Positions 7,081-64,000 of a stretch of DNA of 64,000 nucleotides are shown piece after piece. Within the stretch, counting starts at the first letter, position 1; each line of letters opens with the position of its first letter. The translations under genes were made by a program, and so were the position numbers. The stretch is from Candidatus Taenariivivens baikalensis (lineage in GTDB: Bacteria > Omnitrophota > Omnitrophia > Omnitrophales > Aquincolibacteriaceae). The stretch covers positions 2,486 to 66,485 of the forward strand of contig SICL01000006.1 of the NCBI GenBank assembly GCA_009691445.1, written 5' to 3'. The notes under the pieces are model-generated. The model did no database searches. It was not told where the DNA came from and worked only from the letters and a program-made list of their open reading frames with translations.

Positions 7081-7168
7081 AGGAAAAGAGGGGAGAAGGA
7101 AGATGGAAGAGGGAAGAAAAAAAAGCGGTTTTAATCTTCCCTCTTCCATCTTCTTTCTTCCTTCTACA
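7081..7168. repeat. Intergenic hairpin element made of inverted arrays of the heptamer GGAAGAN around an A-rich loop. Member of the heptamer-array hairpin family; may also act as a terminator.
   Basis: aggaaaagaggggagaaggaagatggaagagggaag...cttccctcttccatcttctttcttccttct read directly. Confidence 0.6.
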
Positions 7169-7170
7169 TT

Positions 7171-8397
7171 ATGATTTGGGATATCACGATTATCGGAGCG
7201 GGAGCTGCGGGACTCATGACCGCCATTCATGCTACGGGAGGAAATCGCCGCGTATTGCTCCTGGACTCGAAAGAACGAATCGGTGCCAAGATCCTGATGT
7301 CGGGAGGAACGCGGTGCAATGTCACGAACCTTCAAGTTGACGTAAAGGATTTTCAAAGTGAGCATCCGCGCGTCGTTCGTAATATTTTGTCTGCCTATCC
7401 CAGTTCGAAGGCGGTCAATTTTTTTGAATCCATCGGAGTGATACTCGCCCTGGAAGAGGGAGGAAAATTTTTCCCTGAAACCCAAAGTGCAAAAACAGTT
7501 CTTGAAGGGCTCCTAAGTGAAGTAAAAAATCGCAATGTCGATTTGGTCACGGGCCGGCGTGTGGAATCGGTGGAGGTAGATCTTGCATCTTTCCATATTC
7601 GCGGCAAGGGATTTGAATATGAGTCCAAAACCGTTGTGATTTGTACGGGTGGACTTTCTTATCCGGGAACTGGAAGTGACGGGAAAGGGTATGAGATTGC
7701 CCGGCATTTCGGTCACTCGCTCATTGAGACAATGCCTGCATTGACCCCGCTTTCGACGAATGATCCCGATTGGAAAAGTCTTTCCGGTCTTTCGCTTTTT
7801 TGCCGTCTTGTTTTAAAAACAGGAGTTAAGGAAAGAGCTTCATACGAAGACTCGTTTCTTTTCACTCACTTCGGATTTAGCGGTCCTTCGGTTTTGGATA
7901 TCAGCCGCCATTGGCTTCACTGGAAAAAGGAGGAGCCGATTTTGACCGCTAACTTTCTTCCCAAGGAAACCGAAGAAACCCTGCGGGCCACACTTTTGGA
8001 AATGACCACCGAACATTTTGACTGGACGCTCAAGCGGTTTCTTTGCGAAAAACTTCCGGAAAGGCTTGTCGAGATCATTTTAAAAAAATCCTCTATCCCC
8101 AAAGATCAAAGATTGAAACAACTCAAAAAGGAAGCTCGGGAGGTCTTGATCCGGAACCTGTTTCGAATGCCTCTTTCGATCACGGGAGTTTTTGGGTATC
8201 AAAAAGCCGAGGTAACTGCGGGTGGGGTAACTCTGGACGATCTGGATCCTCGTACCTTAGAGTCCAAAAGGCAGCCAGGACTTTTTTTTGCCGGAGAAGT
8301 GGTGGATGTCGATGGCCGCATCGGTGGGTTTAACTTTCAATGGGCATGGGCAAGCGGGGTGGCGGCAGCACTGGGAGCCATTCAGAGATTAATTTGA
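7171..8397 (+). CDS. HI0933/YhiN-family FAD-dependent flavoprotein (aminoacetone-oxidase-family oxidoreductase).
   Basis: N-terminal dinucleotide-binding fingerprint DITIIGAGAAGLMTA and C-terminal GG...AGE motif (FFAGEVVDVDGRIGGFNFQWA). 408 aa. Confidence 0.8.
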   Translation: MIWDITIIGAGAAGLMTAIHATGGNRRVLLLDSKERIGAKILMSGGTRCNVTNLQVDVKDFQSEHPRVVRNILSAYPSSKAVNFFESIGVILALEEGGKFFPETQSAKTVLEGLLSEVKNRNVDLVTGRRVESVEVDLASFHIRGKGFEYESKTVVICTGGLSYPGTGSDGKGYEIARHFGHSLIETMPALTPLSTNDPDWKSLSGLSLFCRLVLKTGVKERASYEDSFLFTHFGFSGPSVLDISRHWLHWKKEEPILTANFLPKETEETLRATLLEMTTEHFDWTLKRFLCEKLPERLVEIILKKSSIPKDQRLKQLKKEAREVLIRNLFRMPLSITGVFGYQKAEVTAGGVTLDDLDPRTLESKRQPGLFFAGEVVDVDGRIGGFNFQWAWASGVAAALGAIQRLI

Positions 8398-8422
8398 CAC
8401 CCCAATTATTTTCACATACAAT
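8394..8422 (+). promoter_or_regulatory. Consensus sigma70-type promoter (TTGACA, 17-bp spacer, TACAAT) overlapping the stop codon of the flavoprotein gene. It would drive a roughly 300-nt leader ahead of the 8751 gene.
   Basis: ttgacaccccaattattttcacatacaat read directly. Confidence 0.4.
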
Positions 8423-9074: not shown

Positions 9075-9274
9075 GCTGTTCTTTGAGAGGGTGCAAGATC
9101 GCCTAATTTCCTGACCTAGGAAAACGGGAGATGCGTTTTAAGGGTGAACCCCGCAGAAAGCCGAAGGGCTATTGTGGGAAGGGTTACTCTGCAACACTGA
9201 TTGAATGATCAGTACGTCCTTTTTAGTTTTTTGGATTGTCCGAACCCGTGAGCTCATCCCGCAGGCGTGGCAGA

Positions 9275-9327
9275 GAAGCCTTCTTTTATAGTCTCGTAAA
9301 GAGATCATAAAAGAAGGCTTTTTTTTG
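9275..9327 (+). terminator. Rho-independent terminator.
   Basis: agaagccttcttttat...ataaaagaaggct stem followed by a T8 run. Confidence 0.6.
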
Positions 9328-9339
9328 TAAACTTCACAC

Positions 9340-9600
9340 CTGCGTCATTGCGGGGTGTACGCTACTGTTCTTTGGTAAACCTCCACTCACCAGCGTCATT
9401 GCGAGCGTGGCGAAGCAATCCCGGGTTGTGCGCCCAGAGATTGCCGCGCCCGCCTGCCGGCGAGGCAGGTCGCCACCAAGGAGCGGGATTCCCAATGACA
9501 AAAACCGTCAGATTGCAGCGGTCGCTTTGCTCCTTCGTTCTTCGGCGAACGCCCTGCTCAGAATGACAACCTTGAAATAGTCCCTTGGTATTCACGGAGA
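9340..9600. repeat. Repeat-rich intergenic block. It holds a copy of the gtcattgcgagcg-N-gcgaagcaatc element (9395-9420) and several aatgac/gtcattg half-sites.
   Basis: The same 25-nt core recurs at 40497-40533. Only spurious short ORFs lie in this block. Confidence 0.4.
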
Positions 9601-9634
9601 GGTTTGATAAAATCCACTCAAATATGAGGGCCCT

Positions 9635-10342
9635 TTGATTACAATTCATCCCGCGGAACAACGTGGACATACTCAGTCTGACTGGCTCGACAGTTACCAC
9701 ACGTTTTCCTTTTCGGATTTCTATGATCCCAACCGTATGAGCTTTTGTTCTCTCCGCGTCATCAATGAAGATCGTATTTTACCCACGAAGGGATTTGGAA
9801 CGCATGCGCACAGGGATGTGGAGATTATCACCTACGTGCTTTCCGGATCGCTGGAGCATAAAGATAGCTTAGGGAATGGCTCGATGATTATTCCCGGAAA
9901 GATTCAAAAAATGAGCGCGGGGACCGGCATTCTTCACAGCGAGTGGAATCCTTCCAAGTCGGACCCGGTTCACCTTCTTCAAATTTGGATCGTTCCTGAT
10001 AAAAAAGGACTGAAACCAAGTTATGAAGAACATTCTTTTGATCGTGGTGCGCTCCAGGGTAAGTGGCAGCTCTTGGCATCCGGATCCAAAAATCAGAAAG
10101 TGATTCATATCCATCAGGATACAGACCTTAATGCAACCACCCTTGAAACCGGGCAGATGATCGACTATGCCTTCAAGCCGGGACGCTGCGGCTGGCTTCA
10201 GGTAGCTGGAGGAGACATTACGGTCAACGAAATGCACTTGAAGGCTGGAGACGGCGCCCAGATAAATCATGAAAAAGCTGTTTCGCTGAAAGGGATTTCA
10301 GGACCTGCGGAACTGGTTTTATTTGACCTTGGCATAGGTTAA
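9635..10342 (+). CDS. Pirin-family protein (cupin).
   Basis: GFGTHAHRDVEIITYVLSG corresponds to the pirin HPHRGFE..TY metal-binding motif. 235 aa. Confidence 0.8.
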   Translation: MITIHPAEQRGHTQSDWLDSYHTFSFSDFYDPNRMSFCSLRVINEDRILPTKGFGTHAHRDVEIITYVLSGSLEHKDSLGNGSMIIPGKIQKMSAGTGILHSEWNPSKSDPVHLLQIWIVPDKKGLKPSYEEHSFDRGALQGKWQLLASGSKNQKVIHIHQDTDLNATTLETGQMIDYAFKPGRCGWLQVAGGDITVNEMHLKAGDGAQINHEKAVSLKGISGPAELVLFDLGIG

Positions 10343-10441: not shown

Positions 10442-11908
10442 ATGATCCTTCTGCGCCGTATTGTTTTATATCTATTCACCCTGATCTATCTCGTATTCTG
10501 CCCGCTCACCATTTTTTATGCGTTGGGATTTATGTATCAGCCCGGATCGGAACACGGCATTGTTAAAACGGGTCTTGTCTATGTTTCTACCGTCCCTTCT
10601 GGAGCCACCGTTTATTTGAACGACATGCGTTATGAGGGGACAACGCCTTCCGTAATTCGCAATCTAATCCCCGGCTCCTATCAGGTTCGGGTTGAGTTAA
10701 AAGGGCATCAGCTCTGGAATCAGGAAGTGCCGGTGGAAGCGGAACACGCCTCGGTATTGGAAAAAATGCTTCTTTTGCCTGAGAGCTTAAAAAAACATTC
10801 CCTGGGGGCGCAGTCCTTTGAACAAATGACAGTCATTCCTGGGACTCCCTTTCTTTTGCTTGCTCGCGGCAAAAAAATATCAGAGTGCTTTGTTTATGAT
10901 CTGAAAAAAAAACTGGAATATCCCCTGTCGGGTCCTTTGTTTGAATGGGAGGACGCCAAGGTTCTTCAAACGCACTTGGTTTCCCGCGCGAAAACGATCG
11001 TGGTGAAACTGGAGAGACAAAATGCCCGCCGATTTTACCAATTTGATTTGAGCCTGGAAAATACGCCTAAAGATCTAACCTCTCTGTTTCCCGAAGAACC
11101 GAAGAAGATCCTCTGGGATCCGTCTGCCGAAACTCATCTCCTCGTTTTTAAAGATAAGCATTTAAATTATCTGCGCTCCGATAAAAAAACAATTTATCCC
11201 AAAGTGGCTGGTAATGTGCAGGGATTTGGTGTGGAAAATAAAAATCTTTATCTGTTGCGAGACGATCATACGTTTGCAGTGATGACCCTGGATGGAAGAA
11301 ACGAAAAGGCCCTTTTGAAAGATGCTGTTCTGGGAGAATCCCTTTTTGAGGACAAGGGATTCTACGATATTGATGTGCTTTCTCCGGAGTTAATCTTATT
11401 TTTGGGTGAGAAAGGAGCATTGATTTCCAATCGATTGCCTTACCGTTTTGCTCACGCGGAGGTGAAGGGTTATGACTACGCTCCTCGACAAAAGAAACTC
11501 CTGGTCTGGACACGCTCAGAGATTGGGGTGATTGATTTTTCCAAAGCTGAGGAATCTGAAACGGATGTGTTCGAAAAAGGGCCGCGCCTGATCTGGATGT
11601 TTACCCGTGGGAAATCGATTCAAAAAGCAACCTGGATTTACGACGCGGCACACGTGATCTTTCAGGATCAGGACCATCTTGTTTTTCTCGACCTCGAGAC
11701 CTTTAACAAGGCCGAGACCCATGAACTTCTCCAAATGAAGGAAGACACGGCGTATCACTACACGGATCAGACCGGACTTCTTTATTTTCTGGACCGTGAA
11801 AGTGGAAAACTGACGGCTGCCGAACTTTTGCCCAAGAGGGAACTCATCTTGCTTCCTTTCCCCACGCGTCAGGAAAAAACCGTAAAACGAAGGCTGATGA
11901 TGTTATGA
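10442..11908 (+). CDS. Membrane-anchored PEGA-domain protein.
   Basis: N-terminal TM helix, then a PEGA-like segment (VPSGATVYLNDMRYEGTTPSVIRNLIPGSYQVRVELKGH). Confidence 0.45.
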   Translation: MILLRRIVLYLFTLIYLVFCPLTIFYALGFMYQPGSEHGIVKTGLVYVSTVPSGATVYLNDMRYEGTTPSVIRNLIPGSYQVRVELKGHQLWNQEVPVEAEHASVLEKMLLLPESLKKHSLGAQSFEQMTVIPGTPFLLLARGKKISECFVYDLKKKLEYPLSGPLFEWEDAKVLQTHLVSRAKTIVVKLERQNARRFYQFDLSLENTPKDLTSLFPEEPKKILWDPSAETHLLVFKDKHLNYLRSDKKTIYPKVAGNVQGFGVENKNLYLLRDDHTFAVMTLDGRNEKALLKDAVLGESLFEDKGFYDIDVLSPELILFLGEKGALISNRLPYRFAHAEVKGYDYAPRQKKLLVWTRSEIGVIDFSKAEESETDVFEKGPRLIWMFTRGKSIQKATWIYDAAHVIFQDQDHLVFLDLETFNKAETHELLQMKEDTAYHYTDQTGLLYFLDRESGKLTAAELLPKRELILLPFPTRQEKTVKRRLMML

Positions 11909-13578
11909 AATTCAATTTTAGCGGGAAAAAATTAACCGGATCAGAACGCGCTATCCAGCGTTTTTTTGAGATCTTGCCTGGGGCCACAAGCTGGTTTATT
12001 TTGATCGGGATGACACTGCTTAGTTTCTGGAACCCCATTTTGGCCGCGGTGTTGATTATTGCCTTTGATTTTTTCTGGATCCTCCGCCTTTTTTTCATGA
12101 CCCTCTTTTTGGTGATTTCCTATTTCCGACTTTCCCTGGAAAAGGAGACGGACTGGATGGCTCGACTTCACGGGCTTAATCATCTGACGGATGCTCTGAC
12201 GTTCCTGAATAAGGATTTTGGTACACGCAGTCTCCCTCAAAAAATTTCTTCCTGGATCCACCGGAAAGAAATGACGGAGCTTCAAAGAAGCGGCGCTTCC
12301 GTTCCTGATTTTAAAAAAATTATCCACTTGGTTCTGATTCCGATTGTGAGAGAGACGCCGGAAATTCTTCGCGACAGTATTTCCAGTTTTCTCAACGGCT
12401 ATTTTCCTTCCGAACAGATTCTCGTCGTGATCGCGCTTGAGGAACGCGCGACCGAGGACGTGAAAGCGGGTGCCCAGCAGATGGCCCGGGAATTCGAAGG
12501 CAAATTTTTTGACTTTAAAGTGATTTTGCATCCCAATCATATTCCGGGGGAGGCGCGTGTGAAGGGGGCTAATGTGACCTACGCGGCTCGGGAAATGACG
12601 CGATATTTTGAACAAAAGGAAATCTTGTTTGATCGCGTGATTGTTTCTTGCTTTGATGCGGATACGGTTGTGGACGCGCATTATTTCGGATGCTTGACCT
12701 ATCAATACATGGTTTGCCCCAAGCGCGAGCGCGCGAGCTTTCAGCCCATTCCGGTTTATCACAACAACATCTGGAAGGTTCCGGGATTTGTGCGCGTGCT
12801 GGAAACAGGGTCTTCCTTTTTCCAGCTTGTAGAATCCACGGACCCGGAAAAACTCGTGACCTTTTCCAGCCACAGTATGAGTTTCAGGGCGCTTGTGGAA
12901 GCGGATTATTGGCCGGTGGATATGATTTCGGATGACTCGGCGATTTTCTGGAAATGTTACATCCACTATGATGGCGATTACCGGGTTGTTCCTCTTTATG
13001 TCACGGTCTCGATGGATGTGGCTGACGCGGGGAATTGGTGGAAGACCATTGTGAATGTTTATCGGCAGAAACGTCGTTGGGCCTGGGGTGTGGAGAATTT
13101 TCCGATTGTGATGCGCGCCTTTCTTCAGGCGAAAAAGATCCCGTTTTCCGAAAAGATGGGCCACGGAGTCAAACTTTTTGAAATGCACGTGGCCTGGGCG
13201 ACTTGGGCGTTTCTGCTTTCTGTGATCGGCTGGCTTCCAGCCCTTTTTGCGGGCCGCGAATTTTCGCACTCCGTGCTTTATTACAGCACCCCCCGCATTA
13301 CCGCGATTATTTTTGGATTTTCCACCTGTGCGCTTGTCGTCACGATTATCATGAGCCTGTGGCTCCTTCCCAAGCGTGAAAAAAGAGATTCTGTATTCCG
13401 GCGACTTGGATTCGCTCTTCAGTGGGTGTTTGTTCCCGGTATTTTTACTTTTCTCAGCACTTTGCCGGCCCTCGAAGCCCAAACGCGTTTGATGCTCGGT
13501 GCCTATATGGAAAAATGGGGCACCGATACGATGCAGCGGCCTGCTGTATTTTCCAGTCCAGCGCCGGGAAAGCAGTAG
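11905..13578 (+). CDS. Integral-membrane family-2 glycosyltransferase, processive beta-glycan synthase-like.
   Basis: DxD (CFDADTV), an ISDDSAIF (TED-like) segment and a Q-x-x-R-W motif (QKRRWAWG) as in cellulose/chitin synthase-type GT2 enzymes. Several TM helices. Overlaps the PEGA gene stop. Confidence 0.6.
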   Translation: MKFNFSGKKLTGSERAIQRFFEILPGATSWFILIGMTLLSFWNPILAAVLIIAFDFFWILRLFFMTLFLVISYFRLSLEKETDWMARLHGLNHLTDALTFLNKDFGTRSLPQKISSWIHRKEMTELQRSGASVPDFKKIIHLVLIPIVRETPEILRDSISSFLNGYFPSEQILVVIALEERATEDVKAGAQQMAREFEGKFFDFKVILHPNHIPGEARVKGANVTYAAREMTRYFEQKEILFDRVIVSCFDADTVVDAHYFGCLTYQYMVCPKRERASFQPIPVYHNNIWKVPGFVRVLETGSSFFQLVESTDPEKLVTFSSHSMSFRALVEADYWPVDMISDDSAIFWKCYIHYDGDYRVVPLYVTVSMDVADAGNWWKTIVNVYRQKRRWAWGVENFPIVMRAFLQAKKIPFSEKMGHGVKLFEMHVAWATWAFLLSVIGWLPALFAGREFSHSVLYYSTPRITAIIFGFSTCALVVTIIMSLWLLPKREKRDSVFRRLGFALQWVFVPGIFTFLSTLPALEAQTRLMLGAYMEKWGTDTMQRPAVFSSPAPGKQ

Positions 13579-13745
13579 GCAGTCGGCAGTAAGCAGTAGC
13601 CAGAAAGCAGTCGGCAGTTAGCAGGAGGCAGTCTGCACTAAGAATATTTTTTGAGATTCGTCTTTTCGAATTAAGTTTTTAATCTTTGTTTTCTGCCTAC
13701 TGCCTCCCTGCCACCTGCCGACTGCTTTCTGCCTACTATTTCTCT
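13579..13745. repeat. Large imperfect hairpin of inverted GGCAGTN heptamer arrays around an AT-rich spacer, just downstream of the GT2 gene and upstream of the giant ORF.
   Basis: ggcagtcggcagtaagcagtagccagaaagcagtcggcagttagcaggaggcagt ... actgcctccctgccacctgccgactgctttctgcctact read directly. Confidence 0.6.
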
Positions 13746-13874: not shown

Positions 13875-16800
13875 GTGACTTCTACACGCTCCTATTTTTA
13901 TTCACGGAAATTTCCAAGAAAATTAATTGCATTTCTGACTGCACTTTTCTTCGTCCTTGAAAGTTTTTTTGTAACCCCTCAGACTTGGGCCGCCGCTGTT
14001 CCTTTCGAAGTTCAAGTACCTGCTTCCCTCGATTTAAAACTTTCTCCTGAACTCGGGACAATTGAATCTCTCAAAACCGGTTCTGGACCGCTCATCATTC
14101 ATATCCAGGAAGCACACGGCAATTATGAAACTCAAAAAAAAATCCAGGGTATTTTGCACTCCCTTCACTCTCAGTACGGAATCGATCGCATTTTGCTGGA
14201 AGGCACTGCCTTTAAACTCCACCCAGAACTCGCCCGGTTTTATCCTGAAAATCCCGCACTGAATGAGAAAGTCCTTGAGGCGCTTGCCAAACAGGGAATC
14301 GCAATTGGTCCCGAACTTTTTCTAGCCAAAACTCCGGAGGCCGAGGCGTACGGGATTGAGGATGTTAAACCCTACGTTGCCAATGGCGTTGCCTTTAAAG
14401 AAGTCCTGATTCAAAAAGAGAAAACCAAAAAGTTCCTCTCACTTCTCGATCAGCAGATCAGAGCCTTCAGTGGAACCTACCTGAACGATCCCCTCCGGCG
14501 TTTTCTAGATCGCACGGCCTCGTTTGAGAATCATCCGGACACCTTGAATGATCCGCTGAATATTTTGAAGCTCCAAGCAAAGGAAAATTTGGCGCTTGAC
14601 CTCGAAAGTCCGCTTGCTCAGTTTGACTGGCCGCAGCTGGTGCGTTTGAATGTGCTCGCGGAGATGGAAGGGAAGTTTGAAGGGGGAGCATTTGCGAAAG
14701 AGAAGGAAGCATTTCTTAGAGCAATCAAGGCTTATACGTGGAAGGAAGAAGGAAGAGGGAAGAAGGAAGAAAAAGAGAGAAAGACTTCTCTTCCTTCTTC
14801 CATCTTCTCTCTTCTCTCTTCTGAATTTTCCACTCCCGCCCCCCCCAATCTCGAAACCCAAATGGAATCCCTTGTTTCTCAGCTTCCGAGCGATTTTGAT
14901 TACAAAGCTTATCCCAACGTCAATCGATTCATTGGTCACAAGCTATTAGCCGCAGAGTTAAAAGGAGATGCGCTGCTCAAGGAAATCGAAATACTCACGG
15001 CTAAGATCACGGACAAGCTCGCCAAGACGAAGGAAGAGAAGGAAATCGTTGAGCTTTTGAAATCGTACAAATTGCTGAAGAAGTTATTTGCGCTGGAGTT
15101 AACGGCGGAAGAATATGAGCAAGTGGTAAGCCGTCGGCAGAAGGCAGTCGGCAGTAAAGAGCCGGAGAAAGGCAGTTCTGCCTACTGCATACTGCCTACT
15201 GCTTTCTTGTCCCGATTCGCCGCTCTCAACCATGAAAATCGCATCAAGGACTTGAATTTTCGAGTGGGTTCAAAAATTGACGCTTTGTACGAAAAGGCGC
15301 TGGAGTTTTACCGTCTCGCCAAAGAGAGGGACGGAATCATGATTAAAAATATCGAGAAAATCCTTCGGTCTGAAACCCGAAATCCTAAACTCGAAACTCG
15401 AAACAAATCAAAAATTCAAAATCAAAAATTCGAAACGACACAGAAAAGCAGTTCCGTTTTAGATTTGAATCACTCGAATTTTGAATTTATTTCGGATTTC
15501 GGATTTAGAGTTTCGAGTTTGCCGAAGGCGGTGGTGGTGATTACTGGCGGTTTCCACTCCAAACCCTTTGCAACCTACTTCAAAGATCACGGCTACAGCT
15601 ACGCGCTCATTACTCCCAAAATGATTTCTACGGAAGGTCGCGAGACTTATGTGGATTTTATTCTTAAGAATTTTTCTCCAGCCCAGACTTCAAATTTTAA
15701 AATTGCACCTAGGGTCATGTCAACACCCTCCGAACTCCTCAGCCTTGGTTTCGGATCAAAAAATATTCAGAGAATGCGATCCGAGGTGAGAGGAATTTCC
15801 AAAAAAGACTACGAGAAATTGGCACACGATGCTCGAGATCCACGTGCGCGCCGAGGCTGGGTCCAGCCAAAGACTTCTGTAACGGGCAGACGGTATCACC
15901 GCCGGGGAATCGGCCAAGCGGCTTTCCGAGACCGCTCTCAAGTTCGCTCGGAGCTCAGGACTCAAGGATCTGAACATTTGCTGGCAGATCGAATGACCAA
16001 AGCTTTGCTTCAAGCCGATCCGGATATATCAGGTCAGGCTGGTTTAGATGTTGCTCATATCAGGGGATCAGCGTCTGCAGGTTCGATTCTGAAGGCTTTA
16101 GAAACTTTGAACACTGAAGAGTTTAAGGCCCTTCGATTGGACCTTAAAGAAAAGTTCGAGCAACAGCTTGCAACGTTTGTGGCTATCAAACCTCATGCGC
16201 TTAAGGAAGAGGCTGCCCTTATTGAGGGATTTGTCAAAGCAGGATTTACGGTTCACCTTGGACCCCAGGTTCAATTCGACGAAATCAAAGCCCGTAATTT
16301 TTACCGGGCGCACGCCTTTGAACCTTTTTTTATTTCGCAGCTGCTTCCCGAGATCACAAAAGGCCCTGCCCGCATTTTGATTCTCGAAAGGGCGTTAGGA
16401 AATGCCGTGGCGGAGGCCCGGAAGGTTGTGGATCAAATACGAAGTGACCGGGGAGTGACGAATAAAGATCCGCAAAATTATGTCCACGCCTCTGATGACG
16501 GCGAAGAGGGATCTGCCTGGCGTGAATCTGGAATCGCGGTTTCAACCTCGGAAGAAATTATGGAAAATATTTCTCAGGCTATTGAGGCGTCAGCTCATCC
16601 TTATGATCAATTAAAATCTGCCCAAAGTCTTGTTGCGATAGGTCAGGTTGACCCTCAAGGAAACGGGCGAAAACTTTTAGAAGGTTTGAAAGTTCCATTC
16701 GGTTTTGATTGGGAGCGCGATTCTGTAGCGGCTAAAAAAATCTTAGAACGTGCTCTCGTCATTCCACAAAAACGATCTGAATTAAGGAAACCAGAAGCAA

Positions 16801-39589: not shown

Positions 39590-39764
39590 AAAGTTAAACT
39601 TTATGCAACAGTACTATCGTTTAGTTATTTTTGTTTGGTGAACCCAGGATTACCAAGATTTACGATTGCGGGAAGGCTATCTGGCAATGGCAGAAGAAGC
39701 ACGGAAGCTGCTTGAGGAATTTAAATATGCGGATGAGGAATCTTTGAAGTCTATAGATTTGCAA

Positions 39765-39890
39765 TGACCAAGAAACAAGATCCAAGAAACAAACAAAGAG
39801 CCAATCTTTCAATTTTAAAATTTCAATAAATTGTTTTAGATATTGGAATTTGAAGATTCCTTGGTTATTGTATCTTGGTGTTTGGTCATT
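39765..39890. repeat. Intergenic heptamer-array hairpin element (CAAGAWA/CCAAGAW arrays inverted around an AT-rich spacer), copy 1 of 4.
   Basis: tgaccaagaaacaagatccaagaaacaaacaaagag ... cttggttattgtatcttggtgtttggtca. Confidence 0.6.
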
Positions 39891-39960
39891 CTAGTTTGGC
39901 TTTTAAAATCTCAGTTGCTTGGGGTGATCTTCAGTGGTATTCTTCCTAGTGGAGGAAGTG

Positions 39961-40401: not shown

Positions 40402-40496
40402 GTAACATCCGGAATCGAAATCCTTTTTTTCTTTCCCGGCTAGTCCTATTGGGCGCTCAGGTTATCCTTTGAGATTGCTTCGTCGGCTGCGGCCTT

Positions 40497-40533
40497 CTCG
40501 CAATGACGTCATTGCGAGCGGAGCGAAGCAATC
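40497..40533. repeat. Palindromic dispersed repeat ctcgcaatgac|gtcattgcgag followed by cggagcgaagcaatc. Second copy of the element seen at 9395-9420.
   Basis: Read directly; 22-nt perfect palindrome. Confidence 0.5.
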
Positions 40534-40573
40534 TCATCCAAACGCGAAAATTTTAGATCCGTAGGAGATCACG

Positions 40574-41629: not shown

Positions 41630-41643
41630 ATACCAAAAATGTA

Positions 41644-41760
41644 ATAACCAAGATACAAGAAACAAGATACAAATAAAGATACAAAAAAACAATAAACCAA
41701 TCTTTGAATTTTTGAAATCTTGTTATTTATTTGGACACTTGTATCTTGTCTCTTGGTTAT
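41644..41760. repeat. Intergenic heptamer-array hairpin element, copy 2 of 4, between cusB-like and cusA-like genes.
   Basis: ccaagatacaagaaacaagatacaaataaagatac ... tttggacacttgtatcttgtctcttgg. Confidence 0.6.
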
Positions 41761-41773
41761 TCAGGACGTGGTT

Positions 41774-45483: not shown

Positions 45484-46521
45484 ATGTCTAAAAAGGATCA
45501 GAAATCTAAGAGTAAATATATTGTTGGGGTGGATCTCGGGGGAACCAAGATCCTGATCGGTTTGATGAATTCCAGTTTTGGATTGATGGGTTCTCACAAA
45601 ACAGCGGTTGAGCCTCAGCGGGGAGAAAAGGTTTTTTTAAAAAGTATCCAGAACGGCATCGAAACTGTTCTTGATGAAGCCCGCGTCTCGATCAAAGAAA
45701 TTAGCTGTATCGGTGTTGGATGCCCTGGGATGATTCAATTTCCTCAAGGAACAATCAAGCTCTCGCCCAATATTGCTTTCCTCAAAAATTATCCTCTTCA
45801 GCGTCGTTTGTCGAAAATGTTTAAGGTTCCCGTTCTGGTCGAAAATGATGTCAATGCGGGACTCTATGGGGAACAGCAGTTTGGATCGGCGCGTGGACAC
45901 CGCCACGTGATTGGGATTTTCCTAGGAACTGGAGTCGGGGGTGCCATGATTTTAGACGGACGGTTATACCGCGGTGCTTCAGGAGCCGCCGGAGAAATTG
46001 GCCACACCTTTTTGGCGCCGCCGTCGATGCTTTCCAGTTTCGAAAAAAGTACAACCTTGGAAGGCCTGGTCGGACGTTTAGCGATTTCCTCAGAAGCAGC
46101 CCTACTTGTGATGAAGCAAAAGGCAAACCACCTTTATGAGGACGTTCAATACGATGTGAGGAGGATTAAAAGTAAGATGCTCCTTAATTCGATTCAGTCC
46201 GGCGATTCATCCGTGAAGGAACTCGTTTTGCAAAAGGGGAGAATTTTGGGACTCGCGATGGCCAATGCGGTGAATCTTCTGAATCCGGAAATGATTGTCC
46301 TTGGCGGCGGAGTGATTGAGGCGATGGGGCATTTAATCATTCCTGTCGCTCGCGAAGTGATGCATCGTTATGCGATGGCACCCATTGTGAAAAACGTCAA
46401 GGTGGCACAGGCCAAACTTGGGGATTACTCAATTGTGAAAGGCGCCGCCAAGCTTGCTTGGGATGTGCATTTTAATTCATGGGAAGAACAAGGAAGAAAA
46501 CGGAAGAAAGGGGAAGAATAA
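45484..46521 (+). CDS. ROK-family sugar kinase / regulator (glucokinase-like).
   Basis: VGVDLGGTKI, ENDVNAGLYGE and LGTGVGGAMI...GEIGH ROK signatures. The C-terminal tail (EEQGRKRKKGEE) is encoded by a one-armed GGAAGAA heptamer array (46480-46520). Confidence 0.8.
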   Translation: MSKKDQKSKSKYIVGVDLGGTKILIGLMNSSFGLMGSHKTAVEPQRGEKVFLKSIQNGIETVLDEARVSIKEISCIGVGCPGMIQFPQGTIKLSPNIAFLKNYPLQRRLSKMFKVPVLVENDVNAGLYGEQQFGSARGHRHVIGIFLGTGVGGAMILDGRLYRGASGAAGEIGHTFLAPPSMLSSFEKSTTLEGLVGRLAISSEAALLVMKQKANHLYEDVQYDVRRIKSKMLLNSIQSGDSSVKELVLQKGRILGLAMANAVNLLNPEMIVLGGGVIEAMGHLIIPVAREVMHRYAMAPIVKNVKVAQAKLGDYSIVKGAAKLAWDVHFNSWEEQGRKRKKGEE

Positions 46522-46573
46522 GGTGAAAGGATTTTATCCTGTTTTACCCTATGCTTCCGTTTAAAGAGGTTTT

Positions 46574-52351: not shown

Positions 52352-52399
52352 ACAATCTCAAATTCCAAATACTAAATCCGAAATTCAGATTTAATATCT

Positions 52400-53140: not shown

Positions 53141-53191
53141 AATGAATGGATCTCCGACACAGGATTACGTCAGAATGGGTAAGAGACTTAA

Positions 53192-53322
53192 ATAACCAAG
53201 ATCCAAGAAACAAGTATCCAAATAATAATCAAGCGACAAGATGCAAGTGTCCAAACAGTTTGTCATTTGTAGCTTGCTTCTTGGAGATTTGGTTATTATT
53301 TGGTGTTTGTATCTTGGATCTT
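53192..53322. repeat. Intergenic heptamer-array hairpin element, copy 3 of 4.
   Basis: aaccaagatccaagaaacaagtatccaaataataatcaagcgacaagatgcaag ... cttgcttcttggagatttggttattatttggtgtttgtatcttggatcttg. Confidence 0.6.
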
Positions 53323-53349
53323 GCAAAAGAGAGTCCTCTCTTTATGCCC

Positions 53350-59214: not shown

Positions 59215-59254
59215 CCTGAAACTTAAAATTTTAAACGAGTAAAAGGAGAATCTA

Positions 59255-59554
59255 ATGTCGGAATCTCAAAAGACAAAGAAATATGCAATGCTGGCCGCTT
59301 CGATCGCCGGAATTATGGCGGTTTGCGGAACCGTCTCTTTAGCGTATGCGGATGATATGGCGATGGACAGCAAAGACGGAGTGTCCTGCTACGGGGTCAA
59401 TGCCTGCAAAGGTCAGGGCGCTTGCGGCGGCAAAGGTCACGGCTGCGCGGGTGAAAACAGCTGTAAAGGAAAAGGCTGGATCAAAGCGGAAAATAAAGAA
59501 GCTTGCCTGAAAATGGAAGGCGGAAGTTTGAAGCCAACGGCCATCACGGACTAA
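59255..59554 (+). CDS. DUF2282-family Cys-rich precursor peptide (bufferin BufA-like).
   Basis: Signal peptide, then VSCYGVNACKGQGACGGKGHGCAGENSCKG (the CYGV..C..G..C pattern of DUF2282). Immediately upstream of a DUF692 gene. Confidence 0.6.
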   Translation: MSESQKTKKYAMLAASIAGIMAVCGTVSLAYADDMAMDSKDGVSCYGVNACKGQGACGGKGHGCAGENSCKGKGWIKAENKEACLKMEGGSLKPTAITD

Positions 59555-59555
59555 T

Positions 59556-59672
59556 AACCAAACACCAAGAAACAAGATCCAAATAATTCCAAAATTTCAA
59601 TTTTCAATAGGAGTGGGAATTGGATATTGATTATTGGATTTTATTTGGAGCTTGTAACTTGTATCTTGGTTA
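59556..59672. repeat. Intergenic heptamer-array hairpin element, copy 4 of 4, between the precursor peptide gene and the DUF692 gene.
   Basis: aaccaaacaccaagaaacaagatccaaataattccaa ... ttggattttatttggagcttgtaacttgtatcttggtt. Confidence 0.6.
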
Positions 59673-59679
59673 TTAAATT

Positions 59680-61383
59680 ATGTCATTTCCTCTCCTCGGC
59701 TGCGGCATCGGTCTTCGCGCTCCTCACTATGCTGAAATTCTAGGGCCGGCCCGAAAATTGGACTGGTTCGAAGCCATCTCTGAAAATTATATGGATACCG
59801 GAGGGCGTCCCCTCCAGATCCTCGAAAAAATCCGCAAGAACTATCCGGTTGGACTTCACGGGGTTGCACTTTCCGTGGGTTCAACGGATCCGATCCATCT
59901 TCCTTATCTTGAAAAATTAAAAACCTTGATCGACCGCATTGATCCTGCGATTGTCTCCGATCACATTTGCTGGTCGGGCGTGGCCGGTGAACATTTACAC
60001 GACCTCTTGCCCCTTCCTTTCACGGAAGAATCCATCCGCCTGATCGTTGAAAAAACGGACCAGATTCAGAATTTTCTTGGACGTCAGATCCTGCTTGAAA
60101 ATGTTTCGACTTATGTCACGTTCAAACATTCCGAAATGCAGGAATGGGATTTTGTGCGGGAGATCGCAAGGCGGTCCGGCTGTGGACTTCTTCTGGATAT
60201 CAACAATGTTTATGTCAATGCTCGTAATCACGGCTTTGATGCCCAGGAATATCTCCGGAATATTCCCGGAGAGTTTGTGGGACAGATCCATCTTGCTGGG
60301 CACACGGACAAGGGTAAATTTCTTTTTGATACACACAGCTCTCCGGTGATCGATGAGGTTTGGGAACTTTACCGCCAGGCGCTGGAATTGTGGGGAAGCA
60401 AGACGACTCTGATTGAGTGGGATGAGGATATCCCTGAGCTTGAGCGCCTGATTGACGAGTGTGATAAAGCGAGAAAGATTTATCAAAGTGTTCGTGTTGA
60501 ACGTCATTGCGAGGAGTCCCTCAGGGACGACGCGGGAATCTCTGTCAGAAAAGGCGGGATTGCTTCGCTTGCGGCTCGCAATGACATCAAGGTAGAAACA
60601 TCTTTAAAAAACATCCAGCTCTGGATGCAATCTCAAATCAGGGACGGTTCTTCCCAACTTCTGGAAGCGCAACAAGTTACAGAAGAACCGTCCCTGAATC
60701 CCCAGGCCGGGGACCCGGGAGTAGAACGTCTTGACGTTTACCGCGAAGGTTATTTGGCCCGCACCGAAGAATCCCTCAAAGAAGTTTACGAAGCGGTTCG
60801 CCACGTGCTGGGCGACGGCGTGTTTCATGATCTTGCGCATCAGTACGCGCAAAGTTTTTCTTCTCCGGATTTTAATCTTAATCTGAAAGGCCGCAGTCTT
60901 CCGGATTTTTTAAAGCAAACCTCTTGGACTGAAAAGCTTCCATTTCTTCCGGATCTGGCCTGTCTCGAATGGAAAATTGCGGAAGCATTTCATGGTTTTG
61001 ACAAACCTGCTTTTGATCCTTCTTTCCTTTTTCAGTTAAATTCGGAAGATTGGAAAAATCTCCGGATTCTTTTTCAGCCGTCCGTATCGCTTCTGGAATC
61101 TTCCTGGCCCATCCTGGATCTCTGGCAGAGTCGAAAAACTCCTGTGGAGGAAATTAGAATGGATCTTGTGAACCGTCCTCAAAAAGTGTTAGTGGCCCGC
61201 CGCCCCAGCAAAGAAGTTTTTTGCCGTCTTCTTACTGAGCGGGAATTCCGGGTTTTGATTCTTCTGAAGCAGGGTAAATCCCTGGGTGAAATGTTTGAAT
61301 TTTTTGATGAAGAGGAAGCCGATCTTCCTCTGACGGATTGGTTTTCTGCCTGGACGCGGGAAGGCTTGATCGCTTCTTCTTAA
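59680..61383 (+). CDS. Fused DUF692 (MNIO/MbnB-like multinuclear iron oxidase, BufB-like) and DUF2063 (BufC/MbnC-like partner) protein.
   Basis: N-terminal half (LGCGIGLRAPHY...SDHICWSG...HLAGH...IEWDEDIP) matches the DUF692 TIM-barrel family. C-terminal half (LDVYREGYLART...DFNLNLKGRSLPDFL) matches DUF2063. 567 aa. Confidence 0.7.
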   Translation: MSFPLLGCGIGLRAPHYAEILGPARKLDWFEAISENYMDTGGRPLQILEKIRKNYPVGLHGVALSVGSTDPIHLPYLEKLKTLIDRIDPAIVSDHICWSGVAGEHLHDLLPLPFTEESIRLIVEKTDQIQNFLGRQILLENVSTYVTFKHSEMQEWDFVREIARRSGCGLLLDINNVYVNARNHGFDAQEYLRNIPGEFVGQIHLAGHTDKGKFLFDTHSSPVIDEVWELYRQALELWGSKTTLIEWDEDIPELERLIDECDKARKIYQSVRVERHCEESLRDDAGISVRKGGIASLAARNDIKVETSLKNIQLWMQSQIRDGSSQLLEAQQVTEEPSLNPQAGDPGVERLDVYREGYLARTEESLKEVYEAVRHVLGDGVFHDLAHQYAQSFSSPDFNLNLKGRSLPDFLKQTSWTEKLPFLPDLACLEWKIAEAFHGFDKPAFDPSFLFQLNSEDWKNLRILFQPSVSLLESSWPILDLWQSRKTPVEEIRMDLVNRPQKVLVARRPSKEVFCRLLTEREFRVLILLKQGKSLGEMFEFFDEEEADLPLTDWFSAWTREGLIASS

Positions 61384-61587
61384 GTCTCTTCCACTACTTA
61401 CTTCCTAAATCGTTTTACCTGCTCCTGATTTCTGCCTAGGTTTAGCTATCTAATGCTATAAATTGATAGTCAAAACAATACAAAGTTCTATGTTAGTTGA
61501 AATAGTATAAAGCTGAGGGTAACTTTTAATAGGACAGCTGTGCCTAGCCAATAAATAAGTACGCACGTAACCTGAGTTGGAGGAAGT

Positions 61588-64000
61588 TTGAACAGGCTTA
61601 AAACCTATTCAAAAGTGAATCGTCTGACAGCAGCATTCACGGCCGTCATTTTTTTGATCACAAGCTATCCATCGCCGCAGGCACAGGGGATGGAACCTTC
61701 CGCTTCCTTGCCTGCTCCCTCACTCCGAAATATCCTCGAAGACCTAAGCGCGATTCAGCTTCCCAAAGATTTTGGAAAAATTCAGGAAAGCTACCGCGGA
61801 AGCTCCGATAAAGTCGCGGTGCTTGTCCAGGACGCGCACTCCATTCCCGATGCGCAGAGAAACATTCAAAACATCATTGGCTTTTTCCAAAAGGAGTATG
61901 ACGTCTCCTTGGTCGGAGTCGAAGGAACCGCCGCCCAATTGGATCCTCAGATTTTCCACAGTTTCCCGGACCGGAAGAAACTTCGGGAAGTGTTTGAGGA
62001 ATATTACGAGCGCGGGGAATTGACAGGGGGAACCGCGGCTGCGATCTTTAGTCGACAGTCCACAGTCGACAGTCCACAGAAAGAGCACGAGGGTTTAAAC
62101 CGTGGACCGTGGACTATGGACCGTGGACTCGCCTTTGAAGGTCTCGAAGACTGGCCTCTTTACGAGCGCGGTGTTTCCGAATTTTTAAAAGCCCTTAAGG
62201 AGCAAAAAAAACTGAGTGAAGTGTTGGACGGGAAACGTGAAGCGCTCAAGAAAGAAAAGGAGAAATTCTACAGCAAGGAACTTCTGGAAATTGACACAGT
62301 CCTTAATCAGTTTCACAAGAATCAGGGGGATTTGGTTGAGACTGTTAAAGTTCTGGCAAAGTACAAGAAGCCGGAAGGGGAGTTGGGGCTCATTCTGAAG
62401 AAGACAGAAGGCAGTAAGCAGGAGGCAGGAAAGATCGAGTTTGAGGTGAAGAGAATTGCCAGGGAAGTGGAAAAAGCTCTCAAAACATTAAAGTTAGAAG
62501 GGGAAAAAGAAAATTCAAAAACTTCCAACCTCGAATTTCAAGCGAAGAAGCAGCTCTACCAAACCTCTCAATTATCCACCGACGACTATGGACTTTATCT
62601 CAGAGAGACCATCGAGAAGAACCACTTGCCCATCAAGTTATCTCTCCATCTTCACCGAGAAGCGGAAGAAGCCCAGAGACTGAGAGATTTAGAAGGCACC
62701 CGTCTCTTCAAGGATTTTGAACGTTACGGGCAATCGGTCAAAGCCAAGCTTTTCCGAAATGAAAAGGAGAGGATTCTGGATCAGGAAAATCATGAGATGG
62801 AGCTGCTCACTCGCTTTGCGAGTCTGGAGCTGAGCCAGGAGGATTGGGAGGAGGTTAAAAGGTTAAAAAGTGAAAAAGTTAAAAAGTTGGGAGACGAAAA
62901 CTTTTTGACCTTTAAACTTTTGAACTTTTCAACGCATTTTAACTTTTATGAAATCGCCGAACAGCGCGACACCAGCCTTTTTAAAAATACGCTCGCGCTA
63001 ATGAAATCCCATCAAGTCAAAAGCTCTTTAGTGATTGCCGGAGGATTTCACGCCGAAGGACTGACGCAAAAACTCAAGGCCAACGGCATTTCCTATGTGC
63101 TGGTGATGCCGGAAATTAAAACTATGCCGGAGCATTCTCTTTATTTGGAGCACATGAAGGGGAATGTGTCGTGGAAGAATTATTTTGAGGTGAAGGATGG
63201 GAAAGTAAATCTTTATGAGGCGTTTGTGAGAAGCAGCCGCGACCGACTGCTGAAGTTAGAAGCTAGAAGTGGGAAGTTGGAAGAACGAAATCAAAAAGCA
63301 TCTCCCTTCGAACTTCAAACTTTGAACTTCCAACTCGCGAAGCTGTGGAGAGACCAAATCATCCGTGACCTCGCTGCGAAGAATGAACTCACCAAAGCCC
63401 ACGATTACACAAGATTCATTGATGAACTTAGCAAAGAGCATAGCGCAGACCTGCCCGCCGAAGCGAAGCGGCAGGCGGGGAGCAAAGGGTCTGAAAACTC
63501 TATGCCCTATGCTCTTAGCTCACTGCTTCGTCAGCAGTGGCTCTCAAACATTCACCGCTTCATCGACGGCCTGAAAAATCTAAAATCCCGCGGTGAAATG
63601 GATATCCCGAACGTCACACAGCTTCTCAACTCTTTTTCCACCGCCGCGCCCGCTCTCGCCGGAGCACTTTCGAATCAATGGGTTGCTGGGTGGATTTTAG
63701 GTTTTGAAGAAAAACGTTCCGAAGTAAGAACGAACCCCTCCGAACCGGACGGCGCGCGGTCAGTGTCCAAGCTTCACTCTTCAACCTTCACTCCTAACTC
63801 ATCTTCCCGCTCCGAAGCGCGCTCGCAGAATGCTGAACCCAGTCAGGGGACGATCCCTGCCGGGGACAGACCCCGGGATCTCACGGAGATTAATGCGAGG
63901 TACGGAAGCAAAGGGTTGGATAAAATCCTGGCCGCCATCCGGAAGATCTATCTTTCAAATGGTTATTCCGATACTGAATTTAACCCGTATCTTGCCTTGA
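61588..64000 (+). CDS. Start of a second large secreted protein, truncated by the window edge and paralogous to the N-terminal Tiki/TraB-like region of the giant ORF. Putative TTG start at 61588; exact start is uncertain.
   Basis: Manual translation gives a signal-peptide-like N-terminus, VLVQDAHS...VGVEGTA and SLVIAGGFHAEG (matching IIHIQEAHGN...LLEGTA and VVVITGGFHSKP in the giant ORF). It has RSEVR and RSEAR motifs near 63715 and 63805. No stop is seen before the window end. Confidence 0.6.
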   Translation, partial: MNRLKTYSKVNRLTAAFTAVIFLITSYPSPQAQGMEPSASLPAPSLRNILEDLSAIQLPKDFGKIQESYRGSSDKVAVLVQDAHSIPDAQRNIQNIIGFFQKEYDVSLVGVEGTAAQLDPQIFHSFPDRKKLREVFEEYYERGELTGGTAAAIFSRQSTVDSPQKEHEGLNRGPWTMDRGLAFEGLEDWPLYERGVSEFLKALKEQKKLSEVLDGKREALKKEKEKFYSKELLEIDTVLNQFHKNQGDLVETVKVLAKYKKPEGELGLILKKTEGSKQEAGKIEFEVKRIAREVEKALKTLKLEGEKENSKTSNLEFQAKKQLYQTSQLSTDDYGLYLRETIEKNHLPIKLSLHLHREAEEAQRLRDLEGTRLFKDFERYGQSVKAKLFRNEKERILDQENHEMELLTRFASLELSQEDWEEVKRLKSEKVKKLGDENFLTFKLLNFSTHFNFYEIAEQRDTSLFKNTLALMKSHQVKSSLVIAGGFHAEGLTQKLKANGISYVLVMPEIKTMPEHSLYLEHMKGNVSWKNYFEVKDGKVNLYEAFVRSSRDRLLKLEARSGKLEERNQKASPFELQTLNFQLAKLWRDQIIRDLAAKNELTKAHDYTRFIDELSKEHSADLPAEAKRQAGSKGSENSMPYALSSLLRQQWLSNIHRFIDGLKNLKSRGEMDIPNVTQLLNSFSTAAPALAGALSNQWVAGWILGFEEKRSEVRTNPSEPDGARSVSKLHSSTFTPNSSSRSEARSQNAEPSQGTIPAGDRPRDLTEINARYGSKGLDKILAAIRKIYLSNGYSDTEFNPYLAL
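62050..62130. repeat. In-frame heptamer-array hairpin (AGTCSAC arrays inverted) inside the second large gene.
   Basis: agtcgacagtccacagtcgacagtccacag ... ccgtggaccgtggactatggaccgtggactc. Confidence 0.5.
62854..62935. repeat. In-frame heptamer-array hairpin-like element (AAAAGTT / AACTTTT) inside the second large gene.
   Basis: ggttaaaaagtgaaaaagttaaaaagttggg ... cctttaaacttttgaacttttcaacg. Arms are imperfectly complementary. Confidence 0.4.
63251..63340. repeat. In-frame heptamer-array hairpin-like element (GAAGTNN / NNACTTC) inside the second large gene.
   Basis: gaagttagaagctagaagtgggaagttggaagaacg ... cccttcgaacttcaaactttgaacttccaactcgcg. Confidence 0.45.

Follow-up and report, generated by a model that had tools for sequence, protein, structure and literature searches.

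Inverted arrays of seven-nucleotide repeats form hairpins between and within genes of an Omnitrophota genome

Known for the largest bacterial genes, the Omnitrophota are a phylum of ultra-small, as yet uncultivated bacteria that may live as predators. Three main genome papers on the phylum make no mention of hairpins, palindromes, heptamers or frameshifts. In 64,000 nucleotides (nt) from one of its members, Candidatus Taenariivivens baikalensis (GenBank assembly GCA_009691445.1, contig SICL01000006.1, positions 2,486 to 66,485; hereafter the window, from whose first letter all coordinates are counted), we studied a set of hairpin elements whose arms are arrays of 7-nt tandem repeats and which lie both between genes and within reading frames. 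What are these elements, how could they have arisen, and do they serve a function? A first-pass annotation of the window had argued that, since their structure is conserved while their sequence is not, they either act as nucleic acid structures or stem from a templated generation mechanism, and that they fit no known class of repeats.

Inverted heptamer arrays and their pairing

Repeat arrays were sought across the whole window with Tandem Repeats Finder and with our own lag-autocorrelation scan for periods of 4 to 15 nt. The scan gave 15 strict period-7 arrays; in 20 dinucleotide-preserving shuffles the mean was 0.1 and no shuffle had more than 1. Each of the other unit lengths had only 0–2 arrays, which is chance level. 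Tandem Repeats Finder detected period-7 arrays at all loci listed in the first-pass annotation. For 13–14 of the 15 arrays, a complementary array lies close by, at a distance of about 4 to 110 nt rather than the 20–60 nt first proposed for the spacer. The total is 14 hairpins and two one-armed arrays (52354–52387 and 62398–62432; Table 1), with seven hairpins intercistronic and seven translated in frame, the latter in the N-terminal domain encoded by an 8182-aa gene and its paralogue. Single-strand folding gave one long hairpin for each of the 14 elements, at −22.7 to −75.7 kcal/mol (z scores −2.6 to −9.0), only 0–2 of 200 shuffles being equally stable, and stability per nucleotide was alike for hairpins in coding sequence and in intergenic DNA. 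The arms thus pair far better than shuffled controls, so the objection that they pair no better than these fails, and the heptamer-built inverted hairpins are confirmed as genuine.

The architecture described in the first-pass annotation, one plan with differing heptamers, was therefore borne out by arrays, partners and folds at the listed loci, with corrections of detail. The list had omitted the hairpin at 63421–63529 and both one-armed arrays. The element placed at 62854 is a hairpin, but its unit is not AAAAGTT; the real unit is 8 nt long (GTTAAAAA). The array at 46480 does form the C-terminus of the ROK gene, but it is not purely one-armed, because a degenerate arm at 46532–46562 pairs with it at 71%. 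Chance low-complexity sequence or an assembly artefact, in favour of which only the purine- or AT-rich composition of some arms can be quoted, was ruled out by the shuffle and fold controls and by the recovery of the same sequence in independent Logan assemblies of SRR8561390 and SRR8561391; moreover, the architecture recurs in NCBI, JGI and ENA contigs of other Omnitrophota, and reading frames stay open across the elements within coding sequence.

Each unit combines a constant core of 5–6 nt with one or two variable positions. Some stems (62045 and 15372 in the window, and those of the comparison loci L015, L020 and L105) consist of 5–6-bp blocks with periodic 1 × 1 or 2 × 2 mismatches at the variable positions, which are often left unpaired rather than compensated; others, such as 7081, are paired over 31 bp without interruption. 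Sliding one arm by 7 or 14 nt lowered complementarity slightly, whereas a slide of 3–4 nt destroyed it. Since pairing survives the slide by whole units, the hairpins are able to pair in several registers. The idea of exact inverted copies was rejected, as in most elements the in-register match barely exceeds that at a 7-nt shift; each arm is an array of units complementary to those of the other and does not mirror it faithfully.

At least seven unrelated heptamers, mostly not of the G-quadruplex type, and one octamer build the elements of the window, and dozens of different heptamers are found over the Omnitrophota loci. In the window there is no single heptamer, or few, that could serve as a genome-wide consensus, unlike GGGAATC or the short tandemly repeated repetitive (STRR) sequences STRR1–3. 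Pairs of elements have identical strings of 12–19 nt in common (null mean 6.7, 99th percentile 10), including a 16-mer, AGGCAGTCGGCAGTAA, in the 13566 and 15125 elements and a 19-mer in 39760 and 59550. The four CAAGAWA elements (39760, 41640, 53186 and 59550) have ~40-nt termini in common, AATAACCAAGA... and ...TCTTGGTTATT, with the variable units in the same order; overall the copies are ~65% identical, and no parent element is visible. A common inner TTTCAAT-type array is nested in 39760 and 59550, and a GC mini-hairpin is nested in the loop of the 63421 element. The strings held in common within families argue that copies of each family have spread within the genome. The element sequences are then not independent, which weakens the argument that conserved structure without conserved sequence reveals function; with related sequences within families and no strand-specific signature, that argument is not supported.

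The intergenic copies lie mostly in short spacers between co-directional genes of operons, with their 5′ edge at, or no more than ~25 nt from, the upstream stop codon. In two of them the stop precedes the hairpin by 11 nt (41640) and, on the minus strand, by 25 nt (53186). Hairpins at eight comparison loci (L001, L009, L014, L015, L016, L020, L043 and L099) are placed within −10 to +16 nt of such stops. The exception is 39760, which adjoins the stop of a mere 26-codon small open reading frame (ORF). Prediction of intrinsic terminators picked out none of the heptamer hairpins, no T-run (a U-tract in the transcript) follows any of them, and terminator-like counts in the window are at chance. Known RNA families were likewise rejected: the one feature of the window to attain the Rfam gathering score is a c-di-AMP riboswitch, and no tRNA genes were found there.

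Table 1. Heptamer-array elements of the window and the two large genes that contain in-frame copies
Feature	Coordinates	Strand	Context and properties
GGAAGAN hairpin	7081..7170		Fills the 90-nt spacer from ORF 6493–7080 (stop 7078–7080) to the HI0933-like gene (ATG 7171); −55 kcal/mol, 31-bp stem, z −9.0; identical in independent Logan contig L081
GGCAGTN hairpin (also 13568)	13566..13742		First units hold the stop of the GT2-like gene 11905–13578; ~135 nt upstream of the giant gene start; −75.7 kcal/mol, z −6.7
Giant ORF, 8182 aa	13875..38423	+	Multi-enzyme, 'archaeovorin'-like; NDK, AlaDh and DHDPS domains; three in-frame hairpins, all in the first 1.65 kb
GGAAGAN hairpin, translated WKEEGRGKKEEKERKTSLPSSIFSLLSS	14739..14825	+	z −2.9; insertion hot spot versus homologues; model confidence (pLDDT) <50 at aa 294–303
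GGCAGTN hairpin, translated RRQKAVGSKEPEKGSSAYCILPTA	15125..15205	+	z −3.8; hot spot, core columns 406–410; pLDDT <50 at aa 428–435
GAAAYYC/CGAAAT hairpin (15372 element), translated	15362..15531	+	z −4.0; clean insertion of 48 aa; pLDDT <50 at aa 502–549
CAAGAWA-family hairpin	39760..39893		Divergent spacer, 38420–39589(−)/39961–40401(+); termini AATGACCAAG...TTTGGTCATT; z −3.4
CAAGAWA-family hairpin	41640..41762		Between RND membrane-fusion gene (stop 41629) and AcrB-like pump gene; z −7.0
GGAAGAN array with degenerate complementary arm	46480..46565		Encodes ROK C-terminus and stop; ends 9 nt before ppx ATG; z −4.1
One-armed CAAATHC array	52354..52387		48-nt spacer of two minus-strand genes; best inverted partner 0.47
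CAAGAWA-family hairpin	53186..53325		Intercistronic, minus-strand operon; extra 3′-arm units 53300–53325; z −4.8
CAAGAWA-family hairpin	59550..59678		From the stop of BufA2 precursor ORF 59255–59554 to 2 nt before MbnB/DUF692 ATG 59680; z −6.2
Second large gene, paralogue of the giant gene's N-terminal domain	61588..64000	+	TTG start; runs off the window; four hairpins and one one-armed array in the first 2 kb
AGTCSAC/GTGGACY hairpin, translated SRQSTVDSPQ...NRGPWTMDRGL	62045..62132	+	z −4.2
One-armed GGCAGNA array in coding sequence	62398..62432	+	12-mers in common with the 13568 family
8-nt-unit hairpin (GTTAAAAA/AAACTTTT), translated	62850..62935	+	Same protein site as the 15125 element of the giant gene; z −3.4
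GAAGTNN/CTTCNAA hairpin, translated	63250..63338	+	z −2.6
AGCAWAG/CTATGCY hairpin, translated	63421..63529	+	GC mini-hairpin in loop; z −3.0; absent from the first-pass annotation

In-frame elements in the giant gene and its paralogue

Multi-enzyme giant proteins of the kind encoded here have been described for Omnitrophota (bioRxiv 10.1101/2023.11.21.568195). Beyond the three hairpins near its start, the giant gene contains no period-7 array in the remaining 22.9 kb (15.6–38.4 kb). The frames are open through the elements and conserved motifs, for instance AVVITGGFH, resume past the inserts, which bears out the earlier claim that copies in coding sequence are translated. Equally sound is the claim that the paralogues carry hairpins at a comparable site, since after the motif LELTxE(E/D)Y the giant gene has the GGCAGTN hairpin and the second gene the hairpin of 8-nt units. 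That the elements never break the reading frame is true of the window but not of every relative: the homologue at L107, from another metagenome, lacks one heptamer and is frameshifted.

In an alignment with eight homologues, the 15372 element corresponds to a 48-column gap in every homologue, while 14739, 15125 and 62045 fall at variable sites where some homologues have insertions of their own. A distant homologue of 30% identity (P0008, in L082) contains at least three in-frame heptamer hairpins, one of which, a related hairpin of the CCGTGG type, stands at the alignment site of the 62045 element. We then aligned 37 N-terminal domains, from the metagenome loci and the window, and recorded insertions of at least 14 aa within the conserved core. 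These occur mainly at three hot spots, at columns 289, 406–410 and 471–474. At the first two, the DNA that encodes the inserts, in the window and in ten other loci, forms hairpins in every case (z −1.7 to −7.9), either heptamer-built ones or GC-rich palindromes. The third holds both arms of the window's 15372 hairpin, scored separately, and a one-armed array in L093. Further downstream in the domain, insertions have z scores near 0. Hairpin elements are thus the leading source of insertions in this domain of the giant proteins.

The domain was modelled with AlphaFold from a 10-sequence alignment. The predicted local distance difference test (pLDDT) score of the model averages 72.6 and drops below 50 inside each of the three inserts of the giant protein (Table 1), although low confidence is no proof of a surface loop. 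In this model the insertion sites appear permissive. The domain itself (13875–15674) had no Pfam or PDB sequence match and a single NCBIfam match far below the cut-off. In a Foldseek search with the model, all matches that were not coiled coils were sub-threshold and belonged to the erythromycin-esterase/ChaN/RRSP (TIKI) superfamily (EreC, BcR135, ChaN and RRSP). The motifs HIQEAHG...LLEG...TGGFH are consistent with a TIKI-superfamily fold; the 'Tiki/TraB-like' label of the first-pass annotation is only weakly supported.

Could the arrays be designed to be translatable? This was rejected on the numbers of stop trinucleotides on both strands, which were 37 against 41 expected in the arms within coding sequence and 113 against 118 expected in the intergenic arms (P ~0.24–0.26). 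With no avoidance of stop trinucleotides, the arrays are not built to be translated, and their survival in frame acts as a filter.

Hairpin-forming inserts of other make were also seen in coding sequence. An inverted repeat at 60638–60697, perfect over 16 bp and with a loop of 28 nt, lies in frame in the coding sequence 59680–61383, at the linker from MbnB/DUF692 to DUF2063, and is not built of heptamers. The giant coding sequence has two copies of a ~100-nt element, GGTTAGCCGGT...ACCGGCTAA, at 27741–27860 and 34261–34380 (−48 and −50 kcal/mol), both flanked by RSEV/RSEL-like linker codons. GC-rich palindromic insertions occupy, in L087, L088/L089, L095, L101 and L111, the hot spots that hold heptamer hairpins in the window, for instance at 10691–10831 in L111; one such insertion contains ...DKQSRIASPMSGTTARND... 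and folds at −83 kcal/mol (z −7.4).

Occurrence in Omnitrophota and likeness to known repeats

The best relatives of the window's polyphosphate kinase (encoded by ppk) are found at 54–66% identity in metagenome-assembled genomes (MAGs) of Candidatus Omnitrophota, and proteins of the window also occur in the ENA assembly ERZ1305449 and in the two Logan assemblies. A cyanobacterial origin with an STRR and highly iterated palindrome (HIP1) context was rejected, given these relatives and the lack of any GCGATCGC (HIP1) in the 64 kb. For comparison, we used ~848 kb of DNA from other Omnitrophota and 867 kb of ppk loci from outside the phylum. In the window there are 23.4 period-7 arrays per 100 kb; the density falls to 4.25 for the other Omnitrophota and to 1.27 for the other phyla. 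Those of other Omnitrophota are mostly inverted pairs too (z −3.9 to −8.8), each with its own heptamer, such as CAAATYC, GAGACNN, GGAATGC, GGGCAAA, GAGTSAT, GTAAGTG or GACCAAA. The architecture is therefore a patchy lineage trait and not a quirk of one contig. One MAG not labelled Omnitrophota (L056, GC 0.64) has a GTGAACA/TGTTCAC heptamer hairpin and GGGTTCA arrays beside ppk, at 5549–5595 and 7322–7594.

Change in the elements can be followed between related loci. L015 and L020 have kept the GAGAC/GTCTC core, with different unit numbers and variable positions. The hairpins of L105 (3298–3400) and L107 (1395–1510) are 100% identical over ~110 nt except that one GTCTTCA unit is missing in L107, and this loss shifts the frame, the rest of the homologous ORF lying in another frame as far as the contig end. 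Over the 7.2 kb compared with L081, the only difference from the window is at 9449–9472, where a 24-nt GC mini-hairpin, CCCGCCTGCCGGCGAGGCAGGTCG, stands for the 6 nt TCGTCT, which marks the recent appearance or disappearance of a very small hairpin. The CCTGCC...GGCAGG mini-hairpin in the loop of the 63421 element resembles it.

The Logan contig L127 (window 40506–41671) ends inside the 41640 hairpin, and a 6045-nt contig of ERZ1305449, judged by gene positions, seems to stop shortly past it, which suggests that the elements fragment metagenome assemblies and bears on the behaviour of assemblers.

Heptamer repeats of the STRR type were reportedly described in cyanobacteria by Mazel in 1990. 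That the elements of the window fit no known repeat class is too strong a statement, since inverted heptamer pairs in Xanthomonas, an intron stem in Nostoc and palindromic elements in Rickettsia are precedents. The closest match is the tandem heptamer GGGAATC of Xanthomonas, which forms 70–75 inverted pairs per genome that are capable of stem-loops or cruciforms (Rehm et al. 2015, PMC4692102). Like the window elements, it and the GGGGAYT repeat of Nostoc (same source) consist of tandem 7-nt units, typically ~4 copies, and form opposite-strand array pairs close enough for a hairpin; copy number varies among related species while the repeat type is preserved. They are mostly intergenic between co-directional genes, 0–50 bp from stop codons or overlapping them, a placement seen in the window for the intergenic copies. 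Unlike them, these repeats belong to another phylum, use one G-rich heptamer genome-wide, which has been read as a G-quadruplex, whereas the window has at least seven that are mostly of other kinds, and are under-represented in ORFs, where seven of the 14 window hairpins reside. The P6b stem of the Nostoc tRNA-Leu(UAA) intron is formed by one of two 7-nt motifs, TDNGATT or NNTGAGT, and its complement (PMC4476775). It resembles our elements in having alternative motifs for the same structure, length variation by whole units and nested side hairpins at a recurrent position, but it is a single cyanobacterial locus in a group I intron, whose RNA structure is clearly the functional object.

Rickettsia palindromic elements (RPEs) are inserted in frame into protein genes and translated (PMC10969869). 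They share with the window elements translated insertions absent from homologues, several families per genome and, it appears, sites compatible with the protein fold, but they form ~100–150-bp families with a conserved consensus and peptide, and have no tandem short units or 7-nt period. The peptides encoded in the window differ with the heptamer, and no 100–150-bp consensus is conserved. The repetitive extragenic palindromes (REPs), with the related mosaic elements (BIMEs) and REPINs (PMC3116915), are also dispersed multi-copy hairpins in operon spacers just past stop codons and may stabilise upstream mRNA. They differ in having one conserved 20–35-nt palindrome per family, in being tied to RAYT transposases and in being extragenic by definition, whereas the window elements are diverse, repeat-built and half intragenic, and no RAYT was seen in the window; the REP/BIME/REPIN class was rejected because only the CAAGAWA family has common termini, no consensus is genome-wide and seven hairpins are in frame. 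The TAACTGA repeats of Beggiatoaceae and cyanobacteria, of 2–6 units with one inverted case among 170 sets (PMC4679880), are heptamer arrays in spacers that end just upstream of start codons, a few being in ORFs, but they use a single heptamer, are direct only and have no hairpin architecture.

Three further classes were set aside. Miniature inverted-repeat transposable elements were rejected since the termini of the four CAAGAWA copies, AATAACCAAG/CTTGGTTATT, resemble terminal inverted repeats but have no consistent target-site duplication. CRISPR arrays, with 24–48-nt repeats and spacers, do not match contiguous 7-nt units in two inverted blocks, and the call of an intrinsic terminator fails on the results given above. 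By consensus, location, unit and terminator tests, then, the first-pass annotation was right that the elements are not REP/BIME, CRISPR or terminators. Eukaryotic foldback (FB) transposons have long inverted arms of short tandem units and variable arm length; they are eukaryotic, kilobase-scale and transposase-dependent, and the likeness is in architecture only. What is new here is the use of many unrelated heptamers and an octamer in a single genome, the frequent in-frame residence at recurrent hot spots of the giant-gene N-terminal domain, and the host phylum, Omnitrophota.

Origin and possible functions

The reading we prefer, to which we give a rough probability of 0.45, is that these are dispersed self-expanding foldback repeats, selfish or neutral, that grow by 7-nt slippage and arm-to-arm copying. 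As imperfect palindromes with arms of tandem heptamers, they would gain or lose 7-nt units in one arm through replication slippage. Because the arms are repeats, they can pair in several registers, which would promote more slippage. A change in one arm would be carried to the other by intrastrand template switching (quasipalindrome correction) or by selection for pairing, so that the stem would grow in 7-nt steps with the 5–6-nt core staying complementary. Copies of a family may then spread to new sites and would persist only where they are harmless, in short operon spacers past stop codons and in surface or disordered protein loops, above all at three or four permissive positions in the N-terminal domain of the giant genes. 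Within coding sequence, the only insertions retained would be those that keep the frame, to be translated as 7-aa-periodic peptides. In transcripts, the copies would form very stable stem-loops, possibly serving as REP-like barriers to 3′-exonucleases or as stalls near the stop, and a one-unit change inside a gene would shift its frame. The templated generation mechanism of the first-pass annotation is plausible and, combined with slippage, is the origin that we infer. In its favour are the enrichment of period 7 alone, the inverted partners and their folds, the slippery registers, the strings common to each family, the insertion of the in-frame copies at low-pLDDT hot spots, the changes in unit number between loci and the uneven density across lineages.

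Heptanucleotide simple sequence repeats are over-represented in many bacteria, according to what PMC4679880 and PMC4692102 relate of Mrazek (2007). The strands of the window hairpins show no G–U bias, with 36 G–U pairs on the sense strand against 41 on the antisense strand and similar energies. Without a sense-strand excess there is no signature of selection on the transcript specifically, and the missing bias and missing U-tracts are as expected for DNA-level palindromes.

Several observations weigh against the elements being selfish or neutral foldback repeats. No mobilising enzyme, target-site duplication or nucleotide-level pair of filled and empty sites was found by inspection, nor was a transposase-like domain found among the ORFs scanned in the window. 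Three independent assemblies of the same population (contigs L081 and L126–L129) are identical at all covered hairpins, so turnover is not fast, and these contigs show no copy-number polymorphism within the population. Both L001 and L009 have a CAAAT-type hairpin upstream of ppk, across diverged genomes. The identity of the L105 and L107 hairpins within genes that are only ~70% identical speaks for constraint or recent exchange and against neutral junk. A further weakness of this reading is that it offers no reason for a unit of 7 nt.

The elements could instead be selected as intercistronic RNA stem-loops that protect against 3′-exonucleases, are processed by RNase III or another enzyme, or stall terminating ribosomes, setting the relative expression of neighbouring genes as do REPs in Escherichia coli and the stem-loops after genes for precursors of ribosomally synthesised and post-translationally modified peptides (RiPPs). 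An effect of REPs near stop codons was reportedly described by Liang, Rudd and Deutscher in 2015. We regard selection of this kind as possible but doubtful. Intergenic hairpins do start near the upstream co-directional stop, within about −11 to +16 nt in the window and at the eight comparison loci, and end just before the next start codon, and the 59550 hairpin stands exactly between the BufA2 precursor ORF and the gene of the modifying enzyme; in a compact genome, however, any element that fills a spacer adjoins a stop codon. Four diverged genomes have a hairpin immediately upstream of ppk, but the window has none there. Between L001 and L009, a change of CC to TT in the 5′ arm is mirrored by GG to AA in the 3′ arm, whereas variable positions are often unpaired instead of compensated, and while stems of up to 31 uninterrupted bp would suit RNase III, going by general knowledge of that enzyme, the sense strand has no excess of G–U pairs and its folding energies are like those of the antisense strand. 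Half of the elements, moreover, are in coding sequence, and 39760 is in a divergent promoter region.

For the copies inside genes, slippage by one unit near the 5′ end of costly giant surface-protein genes could toggle the frame and so switch the protein off and on, which would be a cheap control of extremely costly products. Such contingency switches seem unlikely as the general explanation, even though a 7-nt unit is not a multiple of 3 and the in-frame arrays all lie in the first 1.7–2 kb of the two large genes, a clustering that random placement of three elements in the giant gene, with its empty 22.9 kb, would give with a chance of ~3e-4. The missing GTCTTCA unit of L107 and the recurrence of similar arrays in the same domain of L082, L093 and L105 also fit. 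Yet the repeats are few (4–8 units) and imperfect, which lowers slippage rates, the population assemblies show no variation, and the single frameshifted case may be a pseudogene or an error; intergenic copies are left unexplained, and many insertions at the hot spots of homologues are non-heptamer hairpins unable to slip by 7 nt. It is very unlikely that the arrays are binding sites for a DNA- or RNA-binding protein that reads the core every 7 nt, with inversion a by-product of dimeric or cooperative binding: a constant core with one or two free positions per unit is the expected look, but no single protein could read all the unrelated cores, which number at least seven in these 64 kb and far more over the Omnitrophota loci, and no candidate gene was identified. 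Only slightly less far-fetched is a dedicated Omnitrophota mechanism that writes or propagates inverted heptamer arrays at stop-proximal spacers and in the N-terminal loops of giant 'archaeovorins' as heritable ±7-nt switches; if it existed, the L105/L107 hairpin and the CCGTGG-type hairpin in 30%-identical homologues would reflect site-specific targeting or selection at the level of the element. Foldback repeats, RNA stem-loops and frameshift switches are not mutually exclusive.

The annotation of giant genes is affected by these elements, as 7-nt indels give apparent frameshifts and split ORFs. They bear on the origin of new disordered protein loops, and their architecture of many families with slippery registers is a natural system for the preference for 7-nt slippage and for palindrome growth.

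Some features near the intergenic elements deserve mention. The c-di-AMP riboswitch (ydaO type, 9090–9282; 54.2 bits versus a gathering score of 38) lies upstream of a palindromic element and of the pirin-family gene 9635–10342. That element (9395–9500) is a larger palindrome, GTCATTGCGAGC...GCGAAGCAATC...GAGATTGC, around the GC mini-hairpin at 9449–9472. A strong palindrome of the same sequence type as 9395–9445 occurs at 40470–40535 (GAGATTGCTTCG...GTCATTGCGAGCGGAGCGAAGCAATCTC, −43.8 kcal/mol), between ORF 39961–40401 and the membrane-fusion gene. The genes around the 59550 hairpin (59255–61383) make up a bufferin-type RiPP locus, in which a Cys-rich BufA2 precursor, matched by NF050166 above its cut-off (61.4 bits), has 99 aa including a signal peptide and is followed by an MbnB/DUF692–DUF2063 fusion ORF that is BufB–BufC-like, with a YceI gene upstream.

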